Origin: Thermodesulfobacteriota bacterium
GTDB lineage: Bacteria; Desulfobacterota_D; UBA1144; Nemesobacterales; UBA2774
Direction of reading: 5' to 3'
NCBI GenBank assembly: GCA_965216785.1
Contig: OZ244197.1
Location: forward strand, 96,001-160,000
DNA length: 64,000 nt
Positions 183 through 20,017 of the stretch are shown here, piece after piece. The notes below the pieces were generated by a model. The model had not been told where the DNA came from. It did no database searches and saw only the letters and a list, made by a program, of their open reading frames with translations. Each line of letters starts with the position of its first letter. The stretch's first letter is position 1. Position numbers and translations under genes: made by a program.

Positions 183-1370
183 ATGTCTGTATTCAAGAAA
201 AATAACCGTTGGTATATAGATTATTACCTTCCTGATGGAAAAAGAAAAAGAGAAGTAGTAACTATCGATGGAGTAGACCCATCTAAAATATCCCGAGAAG
301 ATGCAAAAAAAGCATTAACAATCCGCAAGGCTGAGTTAGCAGAAGGCAAGTTTAAAATTGCTCAGACTAGAAAACCAATACCCTTCAAAAAACTGGCAAT
401 GAGGTACTTGGATTATTCAAAAACTAATAAGAGAGCTTGGGTAAGAGATGAGCAGTCTCTTAATCATCTCGAGGCTTTCTTTGAAAATAAAAAACTTCAC
501 CAGATCACACCTTGGCTAATAGAAAAATATAAATCAGAAAGGAAAAGAATAGTAAAGCCGGCAACTGTGAACAGAGAACTGGATACTCTAAGACATATGC
601 TGAATATAGCGGTCGTTTGGAAGATGATAGATGAGACCCCTTACAAAGGTATCAAACATTTTAGAGTAAATAATTCAAATCTAAGAATCTTGAGCGAATC
701 GGAATTTAATAACCTCTATGAATCTGGTTCTTTAGAATTAAAACCAATCATTCTAACTGCATACCTGACAGGTATGAGACTAGGAGAAATTCTGAAACTA
801 AGATGGGAAGATATAGATTTTAAGGATGATTATATCGTAGTCAGAGATAGTAAGAATTATGAAAGTAGAGCGATTTCCATCCACCATACCCTAAAGAAAG
901 CTTTGTCACAACTTAAAAGCAATACTCAATCTGAATATGTTTTTGAGGGAAGAAAAACTGTTAAAAGAGCTTGGCAAAAAGCGTTGAAGCAATCAGGTAT
1001 TACACATTGCAGATTTCACGACTTAAGACATACATTTGCCAGCAACCTAGTTATGAAGGGAGTCGACATTGTAACTGTCGCTGAGCTTTTGGGGCATAAA
1101 GATTTATCAATGACAAAACGTTATTCTCATCCTAGTCCGGAACATAAGAAGAAGGCTATTAATAGGCTAAATCTCGATAGTATGGACACCTATTTAGACA
1201 CCAAAACGTCTCAGAGGAATGAACAAAAGAGGGAAGAAGCGGGACAAGATACTGTAATTAATAGAGAAAAAGTGGTCGGGGTGGCCGGACTTGAACCGGC
1301 GGCCTCTGCGTCCCGAACGCTATTCAAGACTTTTGTGTTAGTCTGTGTGCAAACGTGTGAAGTTGCATAA
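183..1370 (+). CDS. Tyrosine recombinase/phage integrase (element A); C-terminus reads through the att site
   Basis: TGMRLGEIL, HDLRHTFAS, LLGHKDLSMTKRY catalytic motifs; N-terminal arm-binding-like WYIDY; GAGGGG RBS. Confidence 0.93.
   Translation: MSVFKKNNRWYIDYYLPDGKRKREVVTIDGVDPSKISREDAKKALTIRKAELAEGKFKIAQTRKPIPFKKLAMRYLDYSKTNKRAWVRDEQSLNHLEAFFENKKLHQITPWLIEKYKSERKRIVKPATVNRELDTLRHMLNIAVVWKMIDETPYKGIKHFRVNNSNLRILSESEFNNLYESGSLELKPIILTAYLTGMRLGEILKLRWEDIDFKDDYIVVRDSKNYESRAISIHHTLKKALSQLKSNTQSEYVFEGRKTVKRAWQKALKQSGITHCRFHDLRHTFASNLVMKGVDIVTVAELLGHKDLSMTKRYSHPSPEHKKKAINRLNLDSMDTYLDTKTSQRNEQKREEAGQDTVINREKVVGVAGLEPAASASRTLFKTFVLVCVQTCEVA
1183..1202 (+). promoter_or_regulatory. Putative arm-type integrase binding sites of element A
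   Basis: TGGACACC-tatt-TAGACACC, 12-bp period, inside the 3' end of int, ~100 bp from the core. Confidence 0.5.
1267..1320 (-). repeat. att site: 3' fragment of tRNA-Pro (48 nt including CCA), 54-bp direct repeat with 13797-13850
   Basis: Identical to 13797-13850; identity stops at the 5' side of the anticodon stem. Confidence 0.95.
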
Positions 1371-1458
1371 TTGCCTTTATTTATTGAGTAATTCCATAGA
1401 CTAGAGTATATACCTTTTGTGCGTAGTTGAACTTGATTGTGTGAAAGGGGAACTGGGT

Positions 1459-1479
1459 TACTGACATTTTCACTGACAT
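1459..1479 (+). promoter_or_regulatory. Putative arm-type integrase sites, left end of element B
   Basis: TACTGACAT-ttt-CACTGACAT matches TACTGACAT-atc-CACTGACAA at 13736-13756. Confidence 0.7.
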
Positions 1480-1643
1480 GTGGGGGGGGGCAGTACACAC
1501 CCTACCCCAGGCGAGCCAAGCTCTACCCGAACGCATATGGGTGGTAAGACTCTCGCCTCGGAACAAATAATCTATGGGTTGTCTATAACAAACTTTAATT
1601 ATAGTCACATATATAAAATCCTATTTTTCTGAGGCAGGTCAAG

Positions 1644-2453
1644 TTACTTGCAGTACTGTTTTACAGCATCAGTAGCTTGTGGGAATCCCAATTTGCTTGC
1701 TTCGGCAATATCTAAACACCCAGACTTACGTTGACCGAGAGTCATTTTCACAACTCCCCTGTTATATAGTGCTGCAACATTTTTTGGATTAAGTTCTAGA
1801 GCTTTATCAAAATCATCTATTGCTCCTCGATTGTCTTGTAGCATACTCTTAGTTGTTCCTCGGTTGTAAAATGATTGTTCATCTTTTGGATTCAATTCTA
1901 TCGCTTTGCTGTAGTCATCCAGCGAACCTCTTATATCACCTAAGGAAGACTTGGCATTACCCCTATTTAGATAAAAATTAGAATTACTTGGATTTAATTC
2001 AATTGCTTTATTGTAATCTTTTATTGAACTATGCTTATCTTCCAAATAAGAATAAATAACTCCCCTGCTATTAAAAGCTTCGGCATCATCAGGGTTCACT
2101 TCTATCGCCTTGTTACAGTCTTCAATCGCTCCAAGATAATTGCCTAGCGCTGCTTTCGCTAAACCCCTTTGAGAGTAGGCTTCACTATAATTTGGATTTA
2201 ATTCTATCGCTTGCGTGTAATCCTTTATTGAATCCCTGTAATTTTCCAATGCAAGCTTAGTAGCTCCTCTAAGATAGTAAGCCTTTGTGTAATCTTGCTT
2301 AAGCTCTATTGCTTTATTGAAATCCTTTAATGCTCCATAATCATCTCCATTTTCGAATTTAATAAATCCTCTATCAAAATACTCTTCGGCTGTCTGGGCA
2401 AAGACTAATCCAGTTAGAAATATTAACAATATAAATACGATTAAGAATTTCAT
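1644..2453 (-). CDS. Secreted tetratricopeptide repeat protein
   Basis: Signal peptide (VFA-QTAEEY), ~7 34-aa TPR units (AIELNP...YxNRG), C-terminal CLDxxxAxxLG...YC cap. Confidence 0.9.
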   Translation of the reverse strand: MKFLIVFILLIFLTGLVFAQTAEEYFDRGFIKFENGDDYGALKDFNKAIELKQDYTKAYYLRGATKLALENYRDSIKDYTQAIELNPNYSEAYSQRGLAKAALGNYLGAIEDCNKAIEVNPDDAEAFNSRGVIYSYLEDKHSSIKDYNKAIELNPSNSNFYLNRGNAKSSLGDIRGSLDDYSKAIELNPKDEQSFYNRGTTKSMLQDNRGAIDDFDKALELNPKNVAALYNRGVVKMTLGQRKSGCLDIAEASKLGFPQATDAVKQYCK

Positions 2454-2468
2454 TATTATCACATCATG

Positions 2469-2876
2469 TTATTCCCAATCTCGTGGATTGAGAGATGACA
2501 AGCCTTCATAAATATCATTATGATGTAAAAAATACCAAGCTTCTTCTTTTGTTTGCATATTTTTTAACCACGATTCAATTTGAACATAAACTAGCCCTCT
2601 AACCATAGCCTTATCCATTATTTCTTTTAATGAGTCATAATCTTTTCTAGTAAAGTATTGATAATAATGATTCTTCATAATTACTCTAATAGAATTGCAA
2701 GTCGAAGTTTTCATGAATTGATGAATGTCTGTAATGTCTAGGTTTGGAAATTTATCTTCCAATAGGCTGGTTTGTATATGAATTAAAAAAACTTCATACG
2801 GACGCCCTACAGTATAGTGCTTATACATTAGGAACAAGAATATTAAAACTATAATAATTCCAATACTAGCTAGCAA
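2469..2876 (-). CDS. Hypothetical protein with N-terminal TM anchor
   Basis: 135-aa ORF, hydrophobic N-terminus, AGGAG RBS, co-oriented with TPR gene. Confidence 0.6.
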   Translation of the reverse strand: MLASIGIIIVLIFLFLMYKHYTVGRPYEVFLIHIQTSLLEDKFPNLDITDIHQFMKTSTCNSIRVIMKNHYYQYFTRKDYDSLKEIMDKAMVRGLVYVQIESWLKNMQTKEEAWYFLHHNDIYEGLSSLNPRDWE

Positions 2877-3064
2877 GAAGTTACATCTCCTTAAATGTCT
2901 GCTAAAGTCTGTTTCTATTTAGAATTAGATTAAAGCCAGAGCTATACAATTACAAGGTGGTTTTCGCTAATTGAGAAATTCCAAAAGGATAAGATATTAA
3001 GGTGAGCTCCGTAGTAGAATCATTTGATACTTAATAACCTAAAATACGGTAGGCCTAAAAGATG

Positions 3065-3478
3065 TTAAAGCTCAGCCTTACTATTAGATAAGGATTCATA
3101 ATCAATTGTGTGTATTTTAATGGCCTTGCGGTTTGCTCTTTCAAGCATATCGCAGACAATAGAGTTTTCACTAAGTATATGGGCAAAGACGACTACGAGG
3201 TCTACCTGGTGTTCTTGTAGCATAATTTGATTGCGGCGTTTATAACCGTAGTCACCCATAGACTTGTGGGTAGGATATATAACTTGGTCGATACCTATCT
3301 TAGCGCAGAGGGCTTGAGCCGCTGTCTCAGGACCTGGTTCGCCTCCATGAATGATAAGAAGCTCTTTCCCCTTTGAATGAGATTCTTTCCTTAACCTGAG
3401 GATTAAATCTTGTACTATTCTATCGTATGTCCAGTGAGGGGAACCGCAAATAACGACTCTCAATACCGTCTCCGTCAC
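3065..3478 (-). CDS. SLOG-family protein (YspA/DUF2493-like)
   Basis: VVICGS, IIHGGxxGxE and GYKRRNQIML...DLVVVF motifs. Confidence 0.75.
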   Translation of the reverse strand: MTETVLRVVICGSPHWTYDRIVQDLILRLRKESHSKGKELLIIHGGEPGPETAAQALCAKIGIDQVIYPTHKSMGDYGYKRRNQIMLQEHQVDLVVVFAHILSENSIVCDMLERANRKAIKIHTIDYESLSNSKAEL

Positions 3479-3716
3479 CCCTACAGAGACAGTCCCATGG
3501 TTGTTTGAAAAGTCTAATATCTAGCCTCCTTGAATACAAGGGGTTTCATTGAGATTCATATTTGGAATTTGTGTTTGAATTTGTATAGACTCATACTGCT
3601 TTGTTAAGCTGTTTTTAGGGAGATTAATTTTACCAGCTATTTAATGGGAAGTAGTATACTCAAATCTAGTTGTCATCTATGCTTCAAAAAAGTATAGTTA
3701 ATTTAGGTAATGTTGG

Positions 3717-4184
3717 ATGATAATCAAATATATTCTTATAGCACTAGCTTTGCATATTAGTATTACGATTGCCTATCCCGGAGTTTATGCAAAGGATGCA
3801 AGTATAGATGATTGCAAAGAATTTGTTATCGTATATAACCGATATACCAAAAAGCAGGAAAAACTTTTGACTTTTGATTCTAGAGAAAATATTCCAAATA
3901 TTACTGTAGAAAGGGTCAAGAAAACTCATTATGCTGGAATTGTAATCGGAGACCCGGAAGGGAAAGAGCCGATAGGCATGGTACATGTTGCTGATTGCGA
4001 TTTGTCAAAAGCGATATTAGATAAATCGCCAAAAAAATCATTGATTAATACAAGGACCACTGACATTTTCTATTTACCTACAGAAATAAAAGGATGCTAT
4101 GCTTTTAATGATTTTACTGAAGAGGAACGCAAACTTGGATATTATCAATTGGACTTTGTGAGATGTGAGAGCCTTGAAAAGTAA
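3717..4184 (+). CDS. Hypothetical secreted protein
   Basis: 155-aa ORF with signal-peptide-like N-terminus, 4 Cys. Confidence 0.6.
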   Translation: MIIKYILIALALHISITIAYPGVYAKDASIDDCKEFVIVYNRYTKKQEKLLTFDSRENIPNITVERVKKTHYAGIVIGDPEGKEPIGMVHVADCDLSKAILDKSPKKSLINTRTTDIFYLPTEIKGCYAFNDFTEEERKLGYYQLDFVRCESLEK

Positions 4185-4368
4185 AACTTAACCAAAATTG
4201 AAGACGAAGTATTCATAATGGGGGGGTATAAGCAGAATATTTGGCTACCTTTATTTATTGGTTTTAATGTACACAATTCCAACTTAAATCCTGCTTGACA
4301 AATGGGGAGCAGTAAATTGCTTAATGTTAAGTTAAAGCAATTAATCTGATTCGGAGAGTAATCAGAAA

Positions 4369-5358
4369 TTGACCAAAGGAACTACAAAGGCAAAGAAACG
4401 AAAAGATTCTGCTAAGAAAAAAGAATCTACATCCAAAAGCAAGATTATTCCCAACATAAAACCATATTTGGTCCATCTTTTAGCTAGTGCATTCGAAAAC
4501 GAAACCCTTCAGTTTACAGCTTCAAAGTCAATTGAGTCCTTAGCTAATACAGGGGATATTAAACACTTAAGAACCTTATCCACTATTCCGAGTATTTACC
4601 TAGAAAAAATATTTTGGAAACAGCTCAATGAGTGGAATTATTATGCTTATGATGGTGATAAAAATGCTGAGCTACTATTAGAAACAGTATTTAAAGGCTC
4701 TAGAAATGCGATTATTACATATAAATCCAAGAGAACCGGGAGACCCCCTAAATCGTTGCCTCATGAGATTGCAATTGTAGATGAATATTTCAAGTTACAA
4801 GAAGGACTATTAAAGAACGCAGTTGAGGACGGCCAGAAGAAAGAGATAAGCAAATATTACTCTGACCTCGATAATGGCAAGGTATCCAAAAATGACAAAG
4901 TATTAGCAAAGCAAATCCAAGCAAATATCGAGAGAAGGAAGAGAAATCTAACAGCATTTTTAAGAAAAGAAAAACTAGAAATTTCTAATACTAAAGTCGA
5001 TAAGATGCTTCTTAATTCCAACTCAGAAATATCAATCGAGATACTAGCTTCAAGGCATGGAGTAGGTACTAGAAAGATAAAGGGACTTTTAGCAAAAGAA
5101 GACCCTGATTATAAGTATGTAGTAGATTTTTATTCGCCTGGGTCCACAACTAAAAGGATAGATTATATTAAGTATCGTGTAGAAAGAGTAAAAGCTCGGC
5201 AAGAATCAAATGATGATGATAGCTATTATAGGATTCTGTCCAAAAAACTAGGAGTACCAGTCAAAACGCTCAAAGAACAAAACCCCCATATTCATCCTAC
5301 TACGGTCAGAACTCCCCATATATCTAGAGTCTCATCAAAGTCTCCATCCAAAAAATAA
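4369..5358 (+). CDS. Hypothetical basic protein (possible DNA-binding regulator upstream of xis)
   Basis: 329-aa Lys-rich ORF with GRPPK motif; position typical of satellite regulators. Confidence 0.6.
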   Translation: MTKGTTKAKKRKDSAKKKESTSKSKIIPNIKPYLVHLLASAFENETLQFTASKSIESLANTGDIKHLRTLSTIPSIYLEKIFWKQLNEWNYYAYDGDKNAELLLETVFKGSRNAIITYKSKRTGRPPKSLPHEIAIVDEYFKLQEGLLKNAVEDGQKKEISKYYSDLDNGKVSKNDKVLAKQIQANIERRKRNLTAFLRKEKLEISNTKVDKMLLNSNSEISIEILASRHGVGTRKIKGLLAKEDPDYKYVVDFYSPGSTTKRIDYIKYRVERVKARQESNDDDSYYRILSKKLGVPVKTLKEQNPHIHPTTVRTPHISRVSSKSPSKK

Positions 5359-5386
5359 TTCCCCCATTTCACATCACTACATTTTT

Positions 5387-5422
5387 CGTGTGCGGAAACT
5401 AACCCTTCTATTTCCACACACG
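5387..5422. promoter_or_regulatory. Inverted repeat (operator or hairpin) upstream of the xis-helicase operon
   Basis: CGTGTGCGGAAA-N12-TTTCCACACACG, 11/12 complementary. Confidence 0.45.
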
Positions 5423-5484
5423 GGAATTTTACGCATCCATGTACCTTTATTTTCAAATTATCACAACTCTAAAGGAGTAGACAC

Positions 5485-5703
5485 ATGAATAGTTTGAAAC
5501 CAAGACTTATTGATAGGGAAGAGCTTCTGGAGTTATACCCAGCCCTTGCAAGTAAAGGTAAAAATAAATTTTATCGTCTTCAATGGCTAACCCGTTCTCG
5601 GCAAATTCCGGTAATAAGAATCGGGCGGAGGTTGTATTTTGATGTGACCGAAATTGAAGCCTGGCTTGATAGTAAGAGAGTTCATATCGGAGTAATAGAA
5701 TGA
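5485..5703 (+). CDS. Excisionase/AlpA-like HTH DNA-binding protein
   Basis: 72 aa, IPVIRIGRRLYFD..IEAWL wing motif (HTH_17-like); AAGGAG RBS. Confidence 0.8.
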   Translation: MNSLKPRLIDREELLELYPALASKGKNKFYRLQWLTRSRQIPVIRIGRRLYFDVTEIEAWLDSKRVHIGVIE

Positions 5704-7241
5704 ACCGGTACGGTGAACATAAGAAGGCACCAAAGTTTCAAAAATCACTTTACACTGAAGAGGTGGAGCAGACTGAGATAATTATTCTTGCGGCTCTTAT
5801 TTTTGGGGATTTAGACTTTTCGGAGGTACAAGGTGTGTTAGTTAGTAGAGACTTTTATACTGAAGACCATCAATCTATTTTCAAGGTACTTGAAGAGCTT
5901 TACAGAAAAGGTGAGCCAACTGACATTCTGACTGTCACTAATGGGCTTCGTAATGCTAGAAGAAGTAACGGTCGGGAATGGACACAATACCTTTTGTCTC
6001 TCGATGCTAATGCTCTACCACTTAGCACTAATAATCTGGACTACCATATCCGGAATATTATAACCTTCTCTCGAAAACGAGAGCTTTGCAATGATGCACA
6101 TAATCTTGCTATGGCAGTTTCGAACGATAATCTCGATGATGTGAGAAGCCTTGTTGATGCTATTTCAAATTATCAATATGACGATACGTTTAATGATGTA
6201 CTTATACTCGCTGAACAAGCAATAACTCCTCGGACTTGGCTCTTAGAAGGTGCAATACCGGATGGTTATCCAACAATCATTTATGGGGCTGGTGGTTTGG
6301 GTAAGAGTTTTCTAGCATTACAGCTCGCCATACTCGCGTGCCAAGGAGGACAAAAATTCTTACATCTTAAATTCCCGGAAAAGCCTAAGAATGTCTTACT
6401 AGTAGATTATGAACTTGACGAAAGTGAGCAAGCACGACGTGCTAAGCAAATAGCCAGAGGCTTAAACCTCCCAGACGTACCAATAAATCTACATTACATA
6501 TCACCCGCTCAAGGGCTGGCTAGGTTACTTCCGAAACTCAAAGGATTAATACAATCAAAAGATATTAGGTTCGTTATCATAGACTCCATAGGAGCTTCAG
6601 GAACGGACGGGGAGAGCGTCCAGGATGTTGTGAGCCTACTGACGAAAATTAAAGAACTAGGAGCACCAACACTAGTACTGGACCACCAGAGCAAAATGCA
6701 GTCTGGTGACAAATATGGGAATAAGACCCCGTTCGGCACTGTTTATAAAGAAAACTTATCTCGCTCGGTATTCCAATTGTCCAAGGTTGAGGCAGTGGGT
6801 AATAGGGTAACTCTTAAGCTGAGACATAGAAAAGCAAATTTCAGCAGGCTTCTGGATGACTTGGTATTCGACATGTATTTTGAGGGGGATAGAGTCCTTT
6901 TCACGGAGTCAAATGTTAAATCTGATGAAACCAAGGAGGTTGACTTAGTTGATGCAGCTATCAGGGAGCTTGAAGGAGAGGGAAGAAAAGTCAATCAAGA
7001 TGCTATAAAGGAAAGACTCAAGGGAGTTCTGGCTAAGAATAAGGTTGTATCGATATTAGAAGAAAGGAAGGGAGAACTTTGGGACGAAAAACCGGGTAAC
7101 CGCAAGGAAAAATTATATAAATCTAAAAATCCAAAAAGCGGTTCCCTTAGTAATCAGACTTTTGGACTTTTGGAAAATGAGCGAGATTTTGAGATTCCTC
7201 CCGAGTTGATGGATGATAATGAAGAGCTTGGAGGTTGGTAG
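5700..7241 (+). CDS. Replicative helicase: DnaB-like N-terminal domain plus AAA_25 (RSF1010 RepA-like) ATPase
   Basis: DFY..HQ.IF..L..LYRKGEPTDILTV (DnaB N-term); Walker A GAGGLGKS; VDYE; Walker B VIIDS; LDH. Confidence 0.85.
   Translation: MNRYGEHKKAPKFQKSLYTEEVEQTEIIILAALIFGDLDFSEVQGVLVSRDFYTEDHQSIFKVLEELYRKGEPTDILTVTNGLRNARRSNGREWTQYLLSLDANALPLSTNNLDYHIRNIITFSRKRELCNDAHNLAMAVSNDNLDDVRSLVDAISNYQYDDTFNDVLILAEQAITPRTWLLEGAIPDGYPTIIYGAGGLGKSFLALQLAILACQGGQKFLHLKFPEKPKNVLLVDYELDESEQARRAKQIARGLNLPDVPINLHYISPAQGLARLLPKLKGLIQSKDIRFVIIDSIGASGTDGESVQDVVSLLTKIKELGAPTLVLDHQSKMQSGDKYGNKTPFGTVYKENLSRSVFQLSKVEAVGNRVTLKLRHRKANFSRLLDDLVFDMYFEGDRVLFTESNVKSDETKEVDLVDAAIRELEGEGRKVNQDAIKERLKGVLAKNKVVSILEERKGELWDEKPGNRKEKLYKSKNPKSGSLSNQTFGLLENERDFEIPPELMDDNEELGGW
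7122..7174. promoter_or_regulatory. Putative iteron-type replication origin inside the 3' end of the helicase gene
   Basis: TCTAAAAA TCCAAAAA facing ACTTTTGG ACTTTTGG: two inverted pairs of 8-bp repeats. Confidence 0.5.
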
Positions 7242-7562
7242 ATGAGGTCAGTGCTAACGGAAAAAGACAGGCTTTTGAAACTGACATTAGACGGTATAAC
7301 CAAGAGGTATCCGTCTGGCCTATATGAATGGCTTTTCAAATATAAGATTGAAGTTCATGAGCGTATAATCGAGCTAGAGGACAGGATTGATGAGAATTTC
7401 AACGATAATGGAAGCATACAGGAGCTGAAAGCCCTTTTGAGAGGATACTGGGTAGAGCACATAAAAGCTGAACGGGATTTTGAGCTGAGTGGCAAGCCTG
7501 ATGCATCATTGGAGGAAATAAGGTCTGAAAGGATAGATACGCTAGAGCAAAGGCATGTTTAA
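7242..7562 (+). CDS. Hypothetical protein coupled to helicase
   Basis: 106-aa ORF, stop/start abutting both neighbours. Confidence 0.7.
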   Translation: MRSVLTEKDRLLKLTLDGITKRYPSGLYEWLFKYKIEVHERIIELEDRIDENFNDNGSIQELKALLRGYWVEHIKAERDFELSGKPDASLEEIRSERIDTLEQRHV

Positions 7563-8008
7563 TGAAAAAAAATGAGCTTAGCTTGAAAGATTTTCCGCCG
7601 AAACTGCGAAGACTAGCCCGATTTATGCTCGAAAATGAAGAAAAAAAGACTGTTTCGCATGCTTGTCGAGAGCTTGGTTTCAACAAAAGAAGTATTTTCA
7701 CTATGATTCACCGGTCTAAAAGAAAAGGTCATGATTTCAATGAGTTGCTAGCGGATGTATCAGATTTTTATCTCAAAACAGAGTTGATTAATGTTGATAA
7801 AAAGACCATAGAATGGGCCTTAACAGGCTCGGCTCGGGATAGAGAATTATTTTACAAGCGTATAGGGGTGCTTAAAAACAGCCCCAAGATTGAGATTAAT
7901 AACAATCTAGGGCTTACTTTTGCTGTGAAAGTGGATAACGTGAGCGACTCTAATAAAAGGCCTAAAGGGCAAAATGAATTAAGACCTTATATTCCTAACA
8001 AAAGTTAA
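7562..8008 (+). CDS. Terminase small subunit-like HTH protein (phBC6A51-like)
   Basis: TVSHACRELGFNKRSIF HTH, GSARDRELFYKRIG helix, C-terminal beta tail; follows the rep module. Confidence 0.55.
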   Translation: MKKNELSLKDFPPKLRRLARFMLENEEKKTVSHACRELGFNKRSIFTMIHRSKRKGHDFNELLADVSDFYLKTELINVDKKTIEWALTGSARDRELFYKRIGVLKNSPKIEINNNLGLTFAVKVDNVSDSNKRPKGQNELRPYIPNKS

Positions 8009-9835: not shown

Positions 9836-9859
9836 TAATTAGAAATTAAAGAATGCACG

Positions 9860-11649: not shown

Positions 11650-12266
11650 TTACTGGCAATACTTCTTGATTAAATCATAGGCATCCATATACCCTAGCTC
11701 ACCCGCTTTAGACAGGTCTAGACAGCCAGAATCTTTTTGACCTAGATTTATTTTAGCACCAGCTCTGTTGTAGTATGCCAGTGCACCTTTAGGGTCTAAC
11801 TCAATAGCCACGTTACAGTCTTGTATCGCTCCTCTGTTATCACCTAGATTTATTTTAGCACACACATTCTAGAGTAATCGTTAGCAGCCAGAGCATCAAA
11901 ATTAGGATTAAGTTCAATAGCTTTTTTACAATCCTGTATTACTCCCAAATCGTCACCTAAACCTGATTTGGAAATAGCCCTAATTTGATAAGCTAACATC
12001 AGGAATAAATTATAGTAATCAGTAATATTAGGATATGGATAATCTATTATTATTTGCTCAACAATATCAATCGCTTTGTTGCAGTTTTGTATTGCTCCTC
12101 TGTAATCTTTTTTTAGAGACATTCTTATTGCACTATTCCTTAAACGTGTGGCCTAGATTTCTTTGTCCCGCACCTCTTCTCTTATTATCTGGAATTGTTC
12201 AATAGTCTCGGCAAGAGCTAACTCAAGTGTTATCAATATCAATAAAAGAAGGATTGATTGTCTCAT
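11650..12266 (-). pseudogene. Secreted TPR protein pseudogene
   Basis: ATG 12266 gives signal peptide MRQSILLLLILITLELALA; in-frame TAG at 12155-12153; frameshift near 11865; intact GCLDLSKAGELG...YCQ cap. Confidence 0.8.
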
Positions 12267-12448
12267 ACTTATCCCATTATATTATTTTCTCTCTTAATTG
12301 TTATCCCACAGTCTTCTCTGGTTCTCTCTAGCATCCGCTCTGCTTCTGTGGACAGCTCCTGATATTTGATAATGTACTGCCCCCCATAATAGGTCCATAA
12401 GTAAAGTTTGGTTTTAGAAAAATGGAGCGGTACAAAAACTGATGTGCG

Positions 12449-12486
12449 TTGACTATGTTAGAATATGTAAGTATAATATACTTACA
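12449..12486 (+). promoter_or_regulatory. Sigma70 promoter with overlapping perfect palindromic operator
   Basis: TTGACT-17-TATAAT; TGTAAGTATA-a-TATACTTACA (12466-12486) covers the -10. Confidence 0.8.
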
Positions 12487-12699
12487 GTGACAGCAAAAAG
12501 ATTAAGAACTAAAATGTTTCAGGTTTGGCTGCATCCGAAAGAGTATGAGTTTCTAAATACATATGCCAAAGAAAATATGATGACAGCGTCCGAGATAGTA
12601 CGCGGATGGATACACGAAGTCATGAAACGGGAAGGGCTTGTGATTAAGGAGCCTTCTCTTCCGGAGCTCTCAAAAACTAAAAAGGGGGTTAAGAATTAA
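12487..12699 (+). CDS. Ribbon-helix-helix (CopG-like) regulator coupled to integrase
   Basis: FQVWL..KEYEFL..YA....TASEIVR pattern; probable near-leaderless GTG; TAATG overlap with int. Confidence 0.65.
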   Translation: MTAKRLRTKMFQVWLHPKEYEFLNTYAKENMMTASEIVRGWIHEVMKREGLVIKEPSLPELSKTKKGVKN

Positions 12700-13772
12700 T
12701 GGGGAGTGTATATCTGAGAGGTAATTCATATGTAGGCCAGTATAGAGATAGGGGCAGAATAGTACAGAAGACATTAGGGAAAAAAGGGGTAATTACAAAA
12801 ACAGCAGCTCGGGCAATTCTAGCGAAGCTGGAGGAAGCAGTCATGCTGAAGAAATACGACTTGCTCGATGCCGATATTCCCACCTTGAATGAATTTGCAA
12901 GTGAATATATTAAACATGGCAAAGAAGTATTAAAGAAGAGGTCATGGGAACGTGACATATATGGATTAAGACAGTTCAAAGAACACTATGGCAATCGCTT
13001 ACTTTCTGAAATAACATCTAGGAACATAGATGATTTCAAGAAGATTAGACTTAAAGCTGTCTCAACTGGTACTGTGAACAGGGAGCTACAATGTATTAGA
13101 AGTCTCTTCAATCTAGCTAAACGTTGGAAAAGATTTTTTGGTAATAACCCAGTTAGCGAAGCCAGACTTATACAGGTTAATAACCAAAAAGAGCGCATAC
13201 TTTCAAAGGAAGAAGAGGATAGACTTCTGGCACTCTCTAATCCTTACCTCAAGCCGATTCTGATTACAGCTTTAAACACTGGTATGAGGAAAAATGAGAT
13301 ACTTACCCTAAAGTGGACAAATATTGACCGAGATACTAGTGTGATAACACTGGAACATACCAATACTAAAACTAAAACAACTAGGCGGATACCTATAAAC
13401 TCCGTTCTTAGAAAGCTATTATTAGAGCAAATGCTTAAGTCAGGTGGTAATGAATTTATTTTTCTTAACCCGACGGGTAATCCATATAAACGACATGACT
13501 CAATTAAAGGAGCATTCGAAAGACTTTGTAAAAAGGCTGGTGTAACAGGACTCCGTTTCCATGACCTTAGGCATACCGCTGCGACTAGAATGATAGAAGC
13601 AGGAGCGTCTATTGTGGCCGTGAGTAAAATTCTTGGACACTCAGATATTAAAATGACTATGCGTTATACACATCCCGATACTTCCCTAAAAGAAGCCGTA
13701 GAATTGCTGACAAAACCTATTATTTCCGAGCCAACTACTGACATATCCACTGACAATGAAGAAATGGGTTAA
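12699..13772 (+). CDS. Tyrosine recombinase/phage integrase (element B)
   Basis: TGMRKNEIL, HDLRHTAAT, ILGHSDIKMTMRY. Confidence 0.95.
   Translation: MGSVYLRGNSYVGQYRDRGRIVQKTLGKKGVITKTAARAILAKLEEAVMLKKYDLLDADIPTLNEFASEYIKHGKEVLKKRSWERDIYGLRQFKEHYGNRLLSEITSRNIDDFKKIRLKAVSTGTVNRELQCIRSLFNLAKRWKRFFGNNPVSEARLIQVNNQKERILSKEEEDRLLALSNPYLKPILITALNTGMRKNEILTLKWTNIDRDTSVITLEHTNTKTKTTRRIPINSVLRKLLLEQMLKSGGNEFIFLNPTGNPYKRHDSIKGAFERLCKKAGVTGLRFHDLRHTAATRMIEAGASIVAVSKILGHSDIKMTMRYTHPDTSLKEAVELLTKPIISEPTTDISTDNEEMG
13736..13756 (+). promoter_or_regulatory. Putative arm-type integrase sites, right end of element B
   Basis: Tandem ACTGACA with 12-bp period, same as 1459-1479. Confidence 0.7.
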
Positions 13773-13802
13773 TGTGCTCCGAACGAAAGTGCCCGTAAAA
13801 AG

Positions 13803-13880
13803 TGGTCGGGGTGGCCGGACTTGAACCGGCGGCCTCTGCGTCCCGAACGCAACGCTCTAGCCAATCTGAGCTACACCCCG
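13803..13880 (-). tRNA. tRNA-Pro (anticodon CGG), intact, CCA encoded
   Basis: CGGGGTGTAGCTCAGATTGGCTAGAGCGTTGCGTTCGGGACGCAGAGGCCGCCGGTTCAAGTCCGGCCACCCCGACCA folds as a cloverleaf. Confidence 0.97.
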
Positions 13881-13895
13881 TATTAAAGACTCAAT

Positions 13896-13924
13896 ATTTT
13901 ACCTAGTAAACATGACTTTTCTAG
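13896..13924 (-). promoter_or_regulatory. Putative element-supplied promoter for the intact tRNA-Pro
   Basis: TAAAAT (13901-13896) 15 nt upstream of tRNA +1; weak -35 (CTAGAA/TAGAAA). Confidence 0.5.
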
Positions 13925-13940
13925 GCCAATTAAGACTCTA

Positions 13941-13961
13941 TAGTTAGACAATGGTAAGACA
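13941..13961 (+). promoter_or_regulatory. Putative arm-type integrase sites, left end of element C
   Basis: TAGTTAGACA-a-TGGTAAGACA; same motif and 11-bp period at 19872-19892. Confidence 0.65.
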
Positions 13962-14553
13962 CCATAACCTACTATATTTCCTATGTAAGTATCTATTATA
14001 ACATAATATTCTCTATAAAGATAGTACTAGACACTACTAGAACTAGACTCATTTGAGTACATATTTGACTTGGCTAGTCAATAAGTTTCCTTTAATCTTC
14101 TACTATATTTAGAGGTAAGAGAATAGTGTCTCAGAGTGTTATAAACACTCATAATAGTAGGACTAATGGACTCTATATGACTATATGGTAATAATGGTGC
14201 TAGTCATAGTCTACAGTTGTACTCATAGAGCAATATTGGCTACTATAGACCCCCCTAGAAGACCCATAGGGGTACCTCTACACCACACAATATTCCAGCA
14301 TAGTACTCTTATGTGACCCCCATGATAATGAGGCTAGCTAAGTCCCCCACACACATATAAAATTATCAATAGACCCAGCTAGAAACATATATGACAATAT
14401 GCTCTTTTACTGTTCCCATAGTAAACATGAGAGCAGTTGGGCTTATGAATAGTACCAATAAATAATCCAACTTAAACTATGGAACTAATACCAACATCCG
14501 AACAATGACGATAATAGCTATTTTCGCTGCAGTCTTTCATTATTTTGACACTC

Positions 14554-14745
14554 TCAATCGATTGAAAAACAGTAACCAGATGGTTCAAAGTTCTTCTTGC
14601 CACATACACAACCAGAACCGCACATTGAGTGAGAAAAACACTTACCGGTAAAGCAGATACCAGCGAAGCAAGGCTTTGTCATATACACATAACCGGATAC
14701 TGCAACTGCTATTATAAAAACTCCAATCAAAATATATTTAATCAT
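14554..14745 (-). CDS. Small secreted Cys-rich peptide, cystine-knot-like
   Basis: GGAGG RBS, signal peptide, mature part with C-x4-C-x5-C-x3-C-x-C-x10-C. Confidence 0.7.
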   Translation of the reverse strand: MIKYILIGVFIIAVAVSGYVYMTKPCFAGICFTGKCFSHSMCGSGCVCGKKNFEPSGYCFSID

Positions 14746-15227
14746 TATGCACCTCCATTTATAAGTGTTAAAGCCTACAATAGCCTATTATACATATATC
14801 TCCGTTTTCCAGAAAGCTGTATACTTTGATATACCAACTCAGCCTTTAGGAATATTCTCTTATAACTAGTTGATTTAGCCGTCTCCGACCTGTTATCCAA
14901 TTCTGTCAACTTGCATAAAAAAACTAATAATATCTTTATATTACGTATCCATGTCCACTATACGAGGGTCTAGTACTTATATTAAATATTGACCCTAGAA
15001 AATTACCAGTGATGAGTATTACGTAACTTACTCATATCACTGCATATTATCATTTAGGCACATCTATAATTTGCACTATGAGTCATTTACTGAGAAATAG
15101 TTGCTATAGACCTACAGAGATAATGGTTCAATTGAGACCTATCCACCCCATATCCAAGTGGATAAACTGTCACAAACACTAATACATAGTATATACTTTC
15201 TATTGTATAAATACTACAAATTACCTA

Positions 15228-15256
15228 TTGACATTTGATAGATTATCAGGTTCAAT
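15228..15256 (+). promoter_or_regulatory. Putative polB promoter with palindrome in spacer
   Basis: TTGACA-17-TTCAAT; TGATA-gat-TATCA at 15236-15248. Confidence 0.4.
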
Positions 15257-15375
15257 GGTTTTTAACAAGACGTAGAATTATAGACCTAAACATAAATCAA
15301 GATAATCCAATGATAATAGTATCTTAGACCATGGTTTCGCAGATAGATCAATCTATGGCTCTGGAGTGATTAATA

Positions 15376-17643
15376 ATGAATGAATTAGAACTCAGTAGGA
15401 TAGATGATTCCAAGTACAATAGTGTAATAACCCCAGTAAAACGTGAAAAGAAGATACATGAGAACCCACTTATAATAGGATTTGATGCTAACTTATATCC
15501 TTATAAAGGAATGTTTCAGTATCTATCTCTGTCTTTCCATGTTGATGGGGAAACCAGAAGGTACTTTGCCAACGATATATATTATCCTTATAACACACCG
15601 CATACATGCAACGGTAAATACACTATAAAACTTCTTTCAGATTATATCTTTCATTTCCTTTCTGAACTTAAAATTGAATATGATTCAGACTGCATTTACC
15701 TCATAACCCATAATGCAAATGATGAATTAAGCCATTTTGATATATCTAAGAACTACAAACTAAAACCTATAGGTAAGGGTTTATGTTTAGAAGGCACAAT
15801 TAATAACACACTTCTAAATAAAGATCTCAAGCTCAGAATAATTGATATTTATAGCCTTATAAATAAAAGTCTCAAAGATATAGGCAATTATATAGGTATA
15901 CATAGAGTCACATGTAATGAGTTGTTTGAAAGACTTAAGGAATTGAGATTTGAGAATTTAGACATAAGCCAATTATTTGATGACGATATATTCGGGAATG
16001 ACTGCTTAATGGATGCTGAAATAACTTTTGAGGCATTCACGAGACTCAGGTTATTCTTTGTAGAAAATCATAATGTAGACATGCTCAACTTCTATTCACT
16101 CCCCTCACTAGCTGGATACATATTCCAGAGAGATCATATTAATAAACCAACTGTAAGATCAAAAACTATTAAAGAGGCTAGGAAGCAAAAGAAAACTCTT
16201 TCAGATGGTGATGAAAAATATTACGATGTTCCTCAGAAAAAAGAGATATTCAATGGTGATCTTAATGTTAGAAAATGTTCCATGTTGGCCTATCATGGAG
16301 CAAGGATAGAAACTTTCTGCAGAGGCCGGTTTGAAGACAAAAGACTCATATATTACGATGTAGATTCTCTATATCCTTCATCTTCCATACTACAGCCATT
16401 ACCAGTGGCTAATACTAGATGGGTTAACTACAATAAAAGAAACGCTGAAAAGTTTCTTAACCAAGCTGAGGGTTTCGTCGAGGTAGAGTTTAGCTATTCA
16501 CCTGAAACATTTTATCCATGCCTGCCTGTGTCTGGTCTAAGGGATAATATTCTATATTTCCCCCTATCTGGAATAACTTACTGCACTATTTCTGAGCTTA
16601 GAATGGCTATTAAGCTAGGTCTCAGTGATTATATGATTCTTTCAGGTTATTGTTTCTATCCTACCAAAAGAGAAAAGCAACACCCCCTAGCCAGCTTCAT
16701 GAATGACATGCTTGAGAGGAAGCAAAATTCTGAGAAGGGAAGTCTTGAATATATCATGTATAAAATGCAAATGAACTCCCTTGTTGGCAAGCTGGTACAA
16801 AGGGATAAGAACAATGAGACATTAGGAATGTTACATGAAGGCAGTATTTCCAGGGATGTATATGGGAGGGTTGATAATTATAGGAAAGCCAAGGTCGGTT
16901 CTCTGTGGTATCCGGAATGGGCTTCTCTAATTTTAGGAAAAGCTAGAGCCTTAATGTCTGAATTTATATGTAAGGGCACATATTTTATCTCCTCTGATTC
17001 CGTATTGTTACCAAAAGACATAGATATAAATTGTGATTCACTGGACGAATTAAGAAGTGTAGGAAGCAATCTCAGGAAAGAACATGATGTTGACCATGGA
17101 CTAATCATAAGAGCTAGATTGTATGCTCTAAATCCTCTAAATGAAAACCCTAGGCAAAGACATTTAGCTAGGCATGCTGTATCGTGTAAACCTGAAGAGT
17201 TTCGGAATATTATGATCGAGGGATATAAGACTAGAAACATTCCTGACATGTCGTTCACTTCTAAGAAAGCTGTTAAGTATGAAAAATCCATACTAGAAGG
17301 AAAACATTTAAACTCTATGGAAAAGAAGGAATCCAGTATTGAAATAAAATGGGATGGAAAGAGAAGACTATTTAAGGAAGTGGAGAATCCATTCTGTGAC
17401 TTTAGTTGGAGTAGAGCACTAGATGCCAAGGAAGTAGAAAACAATGATATGAGAAGACCTCCTAAACTGAAACCTGGAAGAAAGCAAGGTAAGAAGCTCG
17501 ATACTCCAAAGAAAAGGGACATTGTTAGACTATATAAGGAAGGCAAGAAACAAAAAGAAATAGCTAAGGAATTGGGTATATCCAAAGGATATGTAAGTAA
17601 GGTGTTCAAAGAATTTAATTTGAGTTATCGGGACTTGAACTAA
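15376..17643 (+). CDS. Family B DNA polymerase, primer-independent (piPolB)-like, with C-terminal HTH
   Basis: IGFDAN, YHGARIE, YDVDSLYPS, YPCLPV...FPLSG, KMQMNSLVGK, ISSDS, WDGKR motifs; C-terminal KQKEIAKELGISKGYVSK HTH. Confidence 0.88.
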   Translation: MNELELSRIDDSKYNSVITPVKREKKIHENPLIIGFDANLYPYKGMFQYLSLSFHVDGETRRYFANDIYYPYNTPHTCNGKYTIKLLSDYIFHFLSELKIEYDSDCIYLITHNANDELSHFDISKNYKLKPIGKGLCLEGTINNTLLNKDLKLRIIDIYSLINKSLKDIGNYIGIHRVTCNELFERLKELRFENLDISQLFDDDIFGNDCLMDAEITFEAFTRLRLFFVENHNVDMLNFYSLPSLAGYIFQRDHINKPTVRSKTIKEARKQKKTLSDGDEKYYDVPQKKEIFNGDLNVRKCSMLAYHGARIETFCRGRFEDKRLIYYDVDSLYPSSSILQPLPVANTRWVNYNKRNAEKFLNQAEGFVEVEFSYSPETFYPCLPVSGLRDNILYFPLSGITYCTISELRMAIKLGLSDYMILSGYCFYPTKREKQHPLASFMNDMLERKQNSEKGSLEYIMYKMQMNSLVGKLVQRDKNNETLGMLHEGSISRDVYGRVDNYRKAKVGSLWYPEWASLILGKARALMSEFICKGTYFISSDSVLLPKDIDINCDSLDELRSVGSNLRKEHDVDHGLIIRARLYALNPLNENPRQRHLARHAVSCKPEEFRNIMIEGYKTRNIPDMSFTSKKAVKYEKSILEGKHLNSMEKKESSIEIKWDGKRRLFKEVENPFCDFSWSRALDAKEVENNDMRRPPKLKPGRKQGKKLDTPKKRDIVRLYKEGKKQKEIAKELGISKGYVSKVFKEFNLSYRDLN

Positions 17644-17741
17644 TCACTATTTTATCTTCAATCTATCTTCACAATATGAGTCTAGTATATGTATCTAAAT
17701 ATAAGTTTGAAAAGTAGTGTGAATTTCTATAACTTAATAAT

Positions 17742-18521
17742 ATGATTTGTAAATCGGAACAATGTGGAAAGGAAATACCCAATAACTCAATATATTGCCC
17801 ATCTTGTGGTCATATTGTTGGCAACCAACCGCATAAAGTAATAGATGTAATTTATAGAAGTGGTATTTCAGAATTTAACGAAAATACAAGAATAAATCTA
17901 ATATTTAGTAGACATGATGTAGAGTTCCAAGAAAAACCCAAACTAAGTTTCCTAACAAATAAATTACACGAACCCAAGTATGTACTTTCTATAGATAATA
18001 TTAAAAGTGTCAAATTTTATGGAAGCACGGGAACAACTGCAATTAATACAGCAAACGGTGAAATAGTACTGTCAGAAAGACAATTTAGACTTTATGAAAT
18101 TTTTAGTCAATTATCAAATATTCCTTCAGATACTGTAGATGAGATTAAATCACCTCCATCGGATGCACCAGATTTACTTAAGTTCGTATGTATATCCCTA
18201 ATACTATTATCTCTTTTTGGCCTAAAACGATTCTTTAATAATGTAGGTAAAATTGATTTTAGCGATAATGCAAGTTTTGTATTAGGATTTTTTCTGAGCT
18301 TGCCAACTTTTATTTTGTTGATTCTGTCTTGCTACAAAATATTGCGAGGAAGAAAATGGGCATCATATTGTGCTCAAGTACTACTTGCCTTTTTTATATT
18401 GATAGCTTATCTAGAGTTTAAACTATCCCTTTTGGGAATATTAATAATCATAATCATATCAATTGTAATCTTTTATTTGAATACAAGAAAAGTAAAAGAC
18501 TATCTAAGGGATAAAAACTAA
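17742..18521 (+). CDS. Zinc-ribbon membrane protein
   Basis: N-terminal CKSEQCG...YCPSCG; four C-terminal TM segments. Confidence 0.75.
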   Translation: MICKSEQCGKEIPNNSIYCPSCGHIVGNQPHKVIDVIYRSGISEFNENTRINLIFSRHDVEFQEKPKLSFLTNKLHEPKYVLSIDNIKSVKFYGSTGTTAINTANGEIVLSERQFRLYEIFSQLSNIPSDTVDEIKSPPSDAPDLLKFVCISLILLSLFGLKRFFNNVGKIDFSDNASFVLGFFLSLPTFILLILSCYKILRGRKWASYCAQVLLAFFILIAYLEFKLSLLGILIIIIISIVIFYLNTRKVKDYLRDKN

Positions 18522-18545
18522 TTAAGCCTGTTTGTTATGGATTGA

Positions 18546-18731
18546 CCTAAATTTTATAAGTCCTTACAGTTCGCTAATTCAGTTAGAGCTAAATATCCTG
18601 AAGCATACTTCCGTAGGGGTATAGAACGAATAAGCATCAGTCAGATAGAAACTAGCTGTCTAGATCTCTCAAAATCAGGTGAATTAGGATTTTTCCAAAC
18701 CTGCGATTATATAAAAGAAATATGCCAATAA
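18546..18731 (+). pseudogene. Remnant C-terminus of a TPR protein
   Basis: Frame reads KYPEAYFRRG...SCLDLSKSGELGFFQTCDYIKEICQ*, preceded by in-frame TGA; not in the ORF track. Confidence 0.75.
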
Positions 18732-18744
18732 TCAAAACTACATT

Positions 18745-19788
18745 TCACTCTCTTTTATTTAGCCAGGGCAATCTAGACACGGTCTTTTTCTTATAATCGT
18801 TTGACACATGAGAGTAAATCATAGTAGTAGAAATACTAGAATGTCCGAGTAGTTCCTTAATAGAAACTAGGTCAACCTGATTCATGACTAAATGTGATGC
18901 AAAAGTATGTCTTACTGAGTGAGGGGTAGCTTTTATTCCGGCTTTAGAACATGCTTTATTGAAGCTGTTCTTAATACTCGTAACCCTAGAACCATCAGGG
19001 TGACAGATTAGATAGTTTTTCTGGTCAGCATGTCTAATTGAGACCTGCATTGATTTGGGATGTACATAGTACTTACTCAACCATTCTAACATTTCACTTA
19101 ACTCATAATTGATAGGAACTATCCTGTAGTTGCTAGTCTTCTGACTTTTCACTATGATCACATTATTCTCCAGGTCTATATCAGTGAATTTAAGCTGTAA
19201 TACCTCTCCTATCCTCATGCCGGTATTCCTTAGAACTATTATTATAGGTCTGAGCCATGCACTAGAGCACTCTAATAGACGCTGAACTTCTTCAATAGAT
19301 AGAAAGTTAGGTGGTCTTTTTGGTAGCTTTAAAATAGTAATATGAGGCACTTTTTCAATAAAGTTCCACTCTAATGCCTTTTTTAGTATGGCACTAAGAA
19401 CTGTAAGTTCTCTATTGAGACTAGAAGGAGCCAACCCTTGATCTATTCTGATAGATTTATAATCCTCAATGCATTTATTATCTATCTTCGCTAGACTCAA
19501 ATTACCAAATGAAATCTTGAGATGTTTGATGGCCTGAATTTCTCTTTTATATGTGGATTTCGCCTTATTGGTTTTACAATATTTCAGGTATTGATCTATA
19601 TAGTCATAAAAGAGTATTTCTTTAGTCTCTCTAATGTCTAACCTACCCTTTATATGTTCCAGTTCCAATTGCTTTAGAATCTTTCTGGCTTCCTTCTTAT
19701 CTACTCTCCCAATTCTAATCCACTTCTTCTTTCTATTAATACTGAATACGGCATAATAAGAATTATGTTTGTATGCTAATGAAGCCAT
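18745..19788 (-). CDS. Tyrosine recombinase/phage integrase (element C)
   Basis: TGMRIGEVL, HSVRHTFAS, LLGHSSISTTMIY; AGGAGG RBS. Confidence 0.95.
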   Translation of the reverse strand: MASLAYKHNSYYAVFSINRKKKWIRIGRVDKKEARKILKQLELEHIKGRLDIRETKEILFYDYIDQYLKYCKTNKAKSTYKREIQAIKHLKISFGNLSLAKIDNKCIEDYKSIRIDQGLAPSSLNRELTVLSAILKKALEWNFIEKVPHITILKLPKRPPNFLSIEEVQRLLECSSAWLRPIIIVLRNTGMRIGEVLQLKFTDIDLENNVIIVKSQKTSNYRIVPINYELSEMLEWLSKYYVHPKSMQVSIRHADQKNYLICHPDGSRVTSIKNSFNKACSKAGIKATPHSVRHTFASHLVMNQVDLVSIKELLGHSSISTTMIYSHVSNDYKKKTVSRLPWLNKRE

Positions 19789-19852
19789 AGCATGCCTCCT
19801 GAAGTTGATTCACAGGAAGGTCCTTCAGTAGATGGTGGGTTTTAACATTATC

Positions 19853-19892
19853 TGGTAAGTCTAGGGCTGTTTGGTTAGAACATGGTTAGACA
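19853..19892 (+). promoter_or_regulatory. Putative arm-type integrase sites, right end of element C
   Basis: TGGTAAGTCT, TGGTTAGAAC, TGGTTAGACA. Confidence 0.65.
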
Positions 19893-19970
19893 GCCTTGGC
19901 CTTAACTGGACTAGGAACCATATAACATATTGTACTTACTAGGTATTTTAGGTGGGTCTAAGGTGGTATA

Positions 19971-20017
19971 CTCTGCGTCCCGAACGCAACGCTCTAGCCA
20001 ATCTGAGCTACACCCCG
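19971..20017 (-). repeat. att site: 5' fragment (47 nt) of tRNA-Pro
   Basis: Identical to 13834-13880; lacks the T-arm, acceptor 3' strand and CCA. Confidence 0.95.

Follow-up and report, generated by a model that had tools for sequence, protein, structure and literature searches.

The tRNA-Pro(CGG) gene in a 64,000-nucleotide stretch of a Thermodesulfobacteriota genome (assembly GCA_965216785.1, contig OZ244197.1, positions 96,001 to 160,000; hereafter the window) is flanked by three unrelated integrative elements, A and B on its downstream side and C on its upstream side. Each has its own tyrosine integrase (IntA, IntB and IntC), its own copies of the attachment (att) site and its own pair of arm sites. 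The three probably integrated, and would excise, independently of one another, by a lambda-type reaction across the 7-nt anticodon loop.

Sequence search and ARAGORN together define the locus (Table 1). The core CTCTGCGTCCCGAACGC stands at window positions 1304, 13834 and 19971 and nowhere else on either strand of the window. A fourth copy lies 18.8 kb left of the window (genome C1:77191, window -18809) within a second 3' fragment of the tRNA gene and closes element A, which extends left to C1:77160. ARAGORN finds the intact gene alone in the window, the genome holds no other whole copy, and an Rfam scan of positions 1-21000 returned nothing beyond it (13806-13880). All pieces are on the minus strand, with the 3' fragments 12.5 and 32.6 kb downstream of the gene and the 5' fragment 6.1 kb upstream. 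Identity is exact over 54 bp between 1267-1320 and 13797-13850 and over 48 bp between 13834-13881 and 19971-20018, the tRNA fragments inside the window are 100% identical to the intact gene, and the 3' and 5' fragments overlap in 17 bp only. A and B form tandem 3'-fragment islands, while C is a 5'-fragment island. From core to core, A measures 20,113 bp, B 12,530 bp and C 6,137 bp, and the outer cores of B and C are 18,667 bp apart; GC content is 39%, 36% and 34%, respectively, compared to 46% for the genome. An original prediction, made from the letters of the window, had described three cores, one intact gene and fragments of both ends, and had given the sizes of B, C and B plus C; the search bears out the former and recomputation the latter. 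Its description of the gene as a mosaic also agrees with the positions of the arms, as C's arm stands upstream of the intact gene and B's downstream.

The three integrases pass the Pfam model PF00589, are encoded by full-length open reading frames (ORFs) and keep the TGMR, HxxRH, LGH and catalytic Tyr motifs. They share 29-34% pairwise identity and score below the cut-offs for XerC/XerD and integron integrases. In a tree of 75 integrases (quick IQ-TREE), they belong to three clades with SH-aLRT support of 99-100; its rows were collected as sequences similar to the three queries, and comprise 79 minus two duplicates and two short sequences (L045, L065). Each element carries the same paired arm motif at both of its own ends. 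When the arms were shuffled, the observed match of the best 18-mer common to both was reached in 0/200 shuffles for A, 1/200 for B and 4/200 for C. Profiles built from other loci (10 sites for A, 16 for B, 22 for C) give the cognate arms 24.6-32.9 bits and the non-cognate arms and host flank at most 0.8 bits, compared to background maxima of 12.0 (A), 8.4 (B) and 12.1 (C) in 300 random windows. The cognate scores are partly built in, because patterns taken from these motifs served to choose the training sites, and the informative part of the test is the absence of cross score. The motifs also track the integrase clade at different tRNAs and in both 3' and 5' layouts. In the lambda-type model, the N-terminal domain of the integrase binds arm sites and builds the intasome (PMC2951348), and by analogy the motifs would be arm-type binding sites. 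Real pairs at both ends, three clades and no cross score uphold the proposal that the integrases are distinct and that every one has an arm motif of its own. Matches to integration host factor sites near the cores (five with at most one mismatch in four 537-bp stretches, against about 5.7 expected) were not used.

The 17-bp core had been taken as the shared site. It is indeed an exact overlap at this locus, but only that of these particular fragments, and relatives narrow the interval. Across 101 genomes of the order and additional fetched loci, 5' fragments of tRNA-Pro(CGG) end at tRNA positions 41, 43, 44, 44, 47 and 49. Clean, integrase-linked 3' fragments begin at 29 or 31, and decayed relics begin later. 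The interval common to fragments across relatives is positions 31-41, which contains the anticodon loop (TTCGGGA, positions 34-40). Judged from these ends, the crossover would lie around the 7-nt loop, matching the anticodon-centred class of the Islander survey, site A (PMC4383910, Table 1). The intact gene itself is matched at 100% in 16 of the 100 other genomes searched.

In the favoured history, the first element to integrate would have been A, whose attP carried a tRNA 3' half and moved the host 3' half to C1:77160-77207. B, also of 3' type, would have come next, into the restored gene. C, before or after A and B, would have brought an attP with an upstream region and a tRNA 5' half, and the host promoter and 5' half would have been displaced to 19971-20054. 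That C supplies the 5' half is seen in the 48-bp identity and in the C arms at both of its ends. The working gene is likely C's 5' half joined to B's 3' half, with a sequence identical to the native gene. Each integrase would need both of its own arms, and the expected circles would be of 20,113, 12,530 and 6,137 bp. The order B arm, 3' fragment, IntA is found at tRNA-Pro(CGG) in a relative (G050), as here.

Relatives had been proposed as a source of single-element alleles, and at tRNA-Pro(CGG) elements do occur singly. They are of 5' type in G022, G047, G095 and G028, with a relic in G013, and of 3' type and B-like in G050, G048, G027, G094 and G096. A contig of the same genus (G001) has the gene with its native promoter motif and gave no match to the integrases of A, B or C. 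Typing from the integrase-proximal end was possible for 65 of 77 distinct integrase loci, L045 among them, and 17/65 are 5'-type (10/24 in clade C, 4/17 in A, 3/24 in B), in a biased sample of non-independent kin. The source genome has four 5' fragments among its 15 tRNA end fragments, two internal cross-hits being excluded. Islander, by comparison, lists a 5' fragment for 159 of 3,919 islands (about 4%), together with 125 tandems of two or more (PMC4383910, Table 1). Two geometries produce the 5' layout: elements flipped relative to the tRNA, as in the IntA relative of G028 and in IntC relatives at tRNA-Met and tRNA-Arg, and unflipped elements that carry the other half of the gene, as in C, G022, G047, G095 and L063. 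This suggests that 5'-type integration makes up about a quarter of cases in this lineage and has several origins.

Genes with elements on both sides also recur. In G005, a tRNA-Arg(CCT) gene is accompanied on its upstream side, at 10.5 kb, by a 5' fragment and an integrase of clade C, and on its downstream side, at 17 kb, by a decayed 3' fragment and an integrase of clade B. A 2.7-kb contig of G097 has the IntA end and an A arm upstream and IntB downstream, G013 keeps relics on both sides of tRNA-Pro(CGG), and G007 and G095 are partial cases. Among related observations, the source genome holds three further 5'-fragment islands (C1:1322020-1330340, 1598985-1618944 and 1806935-1825231) at tRNA-Leu(CAA), tRNA-Ser(TGA) and tRNA-Arg(CCT). 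A 59% relative of IntA (L024, G028:C10:9-11243) sits flipped and 5'-type at the same tRNA-Pro(CGG), so that one integrase group is found in both orientations of a single target. L044, L098 and L102 are 5'-side tandems, in which a 5' fragment has the arm of one element upstream and another element downstream.

The original prediction went further, holding that IntB, IntC or both recombine the outer cores in one step and release an 18,667-bp B plus C circle that serves as a portable attB equipped with a promoter. As the loop is common to all the cores, strand exchange would be possible in principle. At the outer sites, on the other hand, stand the far arm of B and the integrase-proximal arm of C, and one-step excision would pair the arms of two clades between which no cross score is seen. 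A composite element should have outer att arms of one integrase family; here a B arm (1460) faces a C arm (19872). The sites at 1304 and 19971 have just 17 bp in common, which is short for RecA. The circle would hold a whole tRNA, and both integrases look intact, yet it could be resolved into B and C circles and would not integrate as a unit by attP x attB, because it would have no site with both arms of one clade. A lone C-type half-site 238 bp from the 1304 core also speaks for the one-step reaction, which as a whole is very improbable; the portable attB is not supported.

A search for its products points the same way. Contigs from three runs of one sample, probably the source sample, were examined; their apparent word size is 31 bases, and contigs drop rare variants. 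Those crossing the cores at 1304 and 19971 are unbranched, and at a word depth of about 85-280x they contain no hybrid junction or loose end at 1320/19971, a weak result for rare circles. A hybrid junction would have unique 31-base words and would be visible in contigs if common. None was found beside the 77 related integrases, and 11 integrase loci without an adjacent tRNA piece showed no arm of a second clade on inspection. A candidate hybrid on a metagenome contig (L064), with a B arm 325 bp upstream of a 75% relative of IntC, has a tRNA-Thr 3' half between the arms and is an ordinary 3' tandem. Two whole intact copies of tRNA-Pro(CGG), the expected mark of circle entry by homologous recombination, were listed for none of the 101 genomes, and a search of mostly open-access literature turned up nothing on 5'- and 3'-type elements excising together.

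Two further candidates were set aside. Three copies of tRNA-Arg(CCT) in G018 were not accepted as a travelling whole tRNA, since co-binned strains fit equally well. These copies (L144, L146, L147) are on separate contigs; their upstream DNA is near-identical over about 190 bp and resembles that of G021, and the elements downstream differ. They may represent co-binned strains or a duplication. In G017 (L051:10182-11750), two near-whole copies of tRNA-Pro(CGG) stand 1.4 kb apart around one long ORF; they are decayed, with no integrase match.

The same B plus C circle could also arise in two steps, if B and C excised separately and the B circle entered the attP of C, a rare and reversible by-product that would resolve back into the two circles. 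Of the sites at the locus, the attP of C mimics attB best, because its side of the core retains seven native bases to the right of the loop and all of the native sequence to the left; in A and B, three native bases on the left are all that is kept. Fragment sites can be reused, as 5' fragments have served a second 5'-type element in G095, G050 and G052. Against this, both circles would be needed in one cell, and the predicted hybrid junction is present in no fetched locus and no contig. The two-step cointegrate is rather unlikely; it is compatible with independent elements and adds no new mechanism.

It is conceivable that none excises any longer and that the layout is a fossil of past integrations. 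B has fragmented TPR ORFs (11650-12122), the polymerase of C has lost its ExoI glutamate, IntA lacks the stop of its relatives, decayed versions of all three types occur in G002, G013, G094 and G096, and depth is not raised over any element. The full-length integrase ORFs with their catalytic motifs, the six paired arms scoring near the profile maximum, and the perfect identity of the window's tRNA fragments to the gene make such frozen relics improbable.

An artefact of assembly, in which strains with A, B or C alone were collapsed through the tRNA repeats, had been named as a possible refutation. The repeats of 48-54 bp break short-word contigs at each att site, leaving the order unproven by contigs. 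Contig depth, which is no measure of copy number, is nevertheless even over A, B, C and flank in the three runs. Run X1 gives 85.7 for A, 88.8/88.2 for B, 82.9 for C and 80 for the host flank, and run X4 gives 293, 277/269, 273 and 282. With near-equal depth, a genome in one 3.12-Mb contig, the B-then-A order of G050 and the fully mapped two-sided locus of G005, a collapse of strain variants is hardly credible.

Independent integration and excision thus remains the preferred account, and several observations weigh against it. The arm sites are assigned by sequence pattern only. The far arm of B (1525-1551) holds the lone C-type half-site (1542) beside a 10-nt look-alike of the core (1525-1534), where the paired C profile scores -0.6. 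IntA or IntB may still act on the attL of C, which has at least 14 native bases to the left of the loop and seven to the right. For many relatives, the type was read from the geometry of one end only. A promoter scan of the C end found two sites against 1.4 expected, which is chance level. Finally, the contigs would hide single-element circles and empty sites, the repeats of 48-54 bp being longer than the apparent word size of 31 bases.

Element C is also distinguished by its cargo, a family B DNA polymerase (PolB) with a C-terminal helix-turn-helix (HTH). The modelled structure (pLDDT 86.7) is closest to phi29 polymerase (Z 22.1, root mean square deviation 4.9, 494 residues aligned, spanning residues 30-656), with the next structure at Z 10.5, and the nearest viral model is the His1 polymerase (E 4.8e-23). 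Its PolC motif reads YFISSDS and its ExoI motif GFDAN, compared to the family consensus GFDTE. A word search found 41 relatives, and 497 representatives match at E 1e-30 or better, with the best 150 listed. Of 168 relatives checked, 75 cover both the N-terminal and the HTH regions. A sequence search of the PDB gave no match, phage and plasmid collections gave only partial matches of 25-29% (plasmid tblastn was without a strong match), and viral contigs yielded one distant locus. The gene is present in 6 of the 101 genomes, in all six accompanied by an IntC-clade gene within its element or contig; the mapped elements measure 6.1, 6.7, 6.8 and about 23 kb. Distant copies adjoin tyrosine integrases in two Myxococcus genomes, and another, on an archaeal contig, lies between tRNA-Thr and its 3' fragment in 4.8 kb.

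Upstream of the polymerase gene, a 41-bp non-coding block forms a candidate replication origin. It recurs with 0-3 mismatches and differing flanks in G005, G011 and G021, so that four of the six PolB genomes keep it. At up to 10 mismatches it was not found at the PolB loci of G041 and G047, and it is absent from the rest of the 4.5 Mb scanned. No terminal protein is evident, because the region upstream of the polymerase holds only ORFs of at most 66 aa. C probably replicates as a circle with its own polymerase.

In its layout C resembles pipolins, which combine a family B polymerase with a tyrosine recombinase at a tRNA between direct repeats (PMC5695915, PMC11551731). The polymerases further share a phi29-type fold and the replacement of the first PolC aspartate. 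Pipolin polymerases are, however, defined by the PolC motif SxTTDG and by KH-X8-KTRG in place of KxY (PMC5695915). The PolB of C has SSDS in place of the former and lacks the latter, with RARLY at the KxY strand; in relatives PolC reads STDS, HTDS or STDG, and among the 168 checked, TTDG occurs anywhere in only three and KH-X8-KTRG in none. C's PolB moreover carries the C-terminal HTH, C measures 6 kb as opposed to about 20 kb, and it is 5'-type whereas 99.8% of delimited pipolins are 3'-type (PMC5695915, PMC11551731). By its sequence, C is pipolin-like in layout yet fails two defining motifs.

Casposons likewise encode their own PolB, which in family 1 is protein-primed and sister to those of His1/His2 and in family 2 has a C-terminal HTH (PMC4046053, PMC4779613). 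C differs in using a tyrosine integrase with att direct repeats. There is no Cas1 among its three long ORFs, its other ORFs being short or antisense overlaps, and among its inverted repeats, none of the 25 longest of 49 joins the two ends. One unpublished archaeal polB element with a tyrosine integrase has been mentioned, in the archaeal RNA-primed clade (PMC4046053). No account of the PolB family of C was found in the literature searched. A tentative possibility is that minimal (5-7 kb) self-synthesizing integrative elements, neither pipolins nor casposons, form an undescribed group with C as its prototype, in which a phi29-like PolB-HTH would replicate the excised circle from the 41-bp origin without a terminal protein. 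On this proposal, clades would switch repeatedly between 3' and 5' layouts, making two-sided tRNAs routine, and the attB-like attP of C could accept B to form a transient whole-tRNA circle.

The ancestry of C may be traced through its integrase. IntC and two 77% relatives, which are 5'-type at tRNA-Pro(CGG) and tRNA-Ala(CGC), belong to a group of seven rows (support 99) whose other four members are 3'-type at tRNA-Thr(CGT). The far arm of C is 75% identical over 185 bp to a 3'-type Thr element in G021. Given this nesting and the far-arm match, C probably changed both target and layout, and would descend from 3'-type IntC and PolB elements at tRNA-Thr(CGT).

By displacing the 5' half, C would also have replaced the promoter of the gene. 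The native motif, TTGCAA-16-TAAATT, precedes the gene in G001 and in most other members of the family, and here now stands ahead of the 5' fragment only; a consensus promoter scan at the native end listed nothing, this motif included. The tRNA of the composite had been called promoter-equipped. C does bear a candidate, TAGAAA-16-TAAAAT, but its 9/12 match is no better than chance. Its -10 region is conserved in a C-type remnant in G002, which has lost the native motif, and there a co-directional ORF ends about 100 bp upstream. Other 5'-type elements have near copies of the host promoter (G022, G013, G047, G005) or place the tRNA just after the integrase gene. The gene may also be dispensable, by analogy with a tRNA gene dispensable in Salmonella (PMC3617221), and its survival is therefore no proof of expression. 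As a separate observation, where the native promoter would be, the only tRNA-Pro(CGG) found in G002 (L029:1291-1375, C58) has a decayed C-type arm and C-type upstream sequence, in which 12 nt match the D arm of the tRNA itself; nothing is left of the element body.

Elements A and B have different cargo. A (G000:C1:77208-97303) holds a sigma-54 activator cluster and a collagen-like gene between its att sites, as well as a replication initiator, a sigma-like regulator and two small-terminase genes (phrog_83 matches); no excisionase was identified in it. The IntA frame has no stop before the att site and runs through the tRNA 3' fragment and core into the far arm of B, so that the last residues of IntA would change on recombination; the relatives L104, L107 and L109 have a stop ahead of the site. 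In B, two TPR genes (1644-2462 and 9029-9835) are intact and encode N-terminal hydrophobic leaders, in addition to the fragmented one. Several of its cargo proteins, such as that at 10099-11346, have no match in the Pfam, PHROG or PADLOC libraries tried, and PADLOC gave one weak TPR match among 12 cargo proteins. Both elements share with phage-inducible chromosomal island (PICI)-like satellites and tycheposons a tRNA-targeting tyrosine integrase, an HTH or excisionase-like gene, a replication gene and cargo (bioRxiv 10.1101/2020.12.28.424599). In B this gene set is represented by HTH_17 and by DnaB-N with AAA_25, and in A by the replication initiator and the sigma-like regulator. A has its two small-terminase matches; B differs in having none, and no capsid gene was seen in either.

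Elsewhere in the genome, a 3'-type Ala(GGC) element carries B's arm motif, an Arg(CCT) element carries A's, and a Thr(CGT) element has C-type repeats; as the motifs are common to several loci, cross-talk between them is conceivable. Beyond the 5' fragment, the genes at window positions 20189-25112 are lower in GC and encode putative lipoproteins, NHL-repeat propellers and a reprolysin-like peptidase. This stretch is missing from G002, whose tRNA is joined to the gene found at window 26338-27089.

Table 1. Features of the tRNA-Pro(CGG) locus, in window coordinates; arm scores are in bits.
Feature	Position	Strand	Remarks
IntA	183..1370	+	PF00589; element A
A-type arm pair, integrase-proximal	1184..1202	+	profile 32.2; partner in A's far arm outside the window, 31.9
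tRNA-Pro 3' fragment	1267..1320	-	tRNA positions 31-78 and 6 flanking bases; attL of A, attR of B; core 1304-1320
Element B, 3'-type	1321..13802		HTH_17 protein 5485-5703; DnaB-N/AAA_25 protein 5700-7241; TPR cargo; IntB
B-type arm pair, far arm	1460..1478	+	profile 30.0
IntB	12699..13772	+	PF00589; convergent with the tRNA
B-type arm pair, integrase-proximal	13737..13755	+	profile 32.9
Intact tRNA-Pro(CGG)	13803..13880	-	attL of B, attR of C; core 13834-13850
Element C, 5'-type	13881..19970		PolB; zinc-ribbon membrane protein 17742-18521; IntC
Candidate replacement promoter from C (putative)	13896..13923	-	TAGAAA-16-TAAAAT; 9/12 consensus match
C-type arm pair, far arm	13941..13961	+	profile 24.6
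41-bp non-coding block, candidate replication origin	14083..14123		conserved among PolB-carrying relatives
Family B DNA polymerase, 755 aa	15376..17643	+	PF03175; C-terminal HTH; phi29-like fold (model)
IntC	18745..19788	-	PF00589; start 182 bp past the 5' fragment in the tRNA direction
C-type arm pair, integrase-proximal	19872..19892	+	profile 30.1
tRNA-Pro 5' fragment	19971..20018	-	tRNA positions 1-47 and one flanking base; attL of C; core 19971-19987
Native tRNA promoter motif	20027..20054	-	TTGCAA-16-TAAATT; now ahead of the 5' fragment only

The processes combined at this locus are known ones. Islander islands also combine a tyrosine integrase, co-oriented fragments (3' downstream, 5' upstream) and an anticodon-centred crossover (PMC4383910). 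In Islander tandems every member has its own integrase and fragment, as do A, B and C. The available text of that survey describes no islands on both sides of one gene, and its 5'-type frequency of about 4% contrasts with 4/15 fragments in this genome and 17/65 typed relatives. Recombination that displaces the 5' part of a tRNA gene is considerably less frequent, with archaeal cases listed (PMC6563490). The available parts of PMC9580842, PMC3119063 and PMC11476347 contain nothing on two-sided loci.

A reverse-orientation integrative element was reportedly described by Zhao and Williams in 2002. It is cited also in PMC1635311, and C shares with it the displaced 5' part of the tRNA gene. In SXT/R391-type arrays, the relatedness of the members is what permits joint excision. 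Such tandem arrays, and ICE-CIME accretion, bring several elements to one site with composite products possible, the elements being related, of one family and at one site (PMC5812530). In A, B and C, in contrast, the arms are unrelated, the integrases are 29-34% identical, and both flanks of the gene are occupied. The layout is known but uncommon, and this locus is a clean example of it with three clades, at which rare hybrid circles are possible.

Alone, the two-sided layout matters little, because it combines known processes. The locus does offer a test bed for arm specificity, as three integrases with mapped, non-overlapping arm motifs meet at one 7-bp overlap and could be cross-tested. Island finders that seek 3' repeats only would miss 5'-type islands such as C. 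The main value lies in the frequent switching between 3' and 5' layouts in this lineage and in the unclassified polymerase of C. Should priming by this polymerase indeed require no terminal protein, the enzyme would represent a further kind of family B polymerase, self-priming or origin-directed and carried by a very small element, and would be of interest to specialists in mobile elements and enzymes alike.

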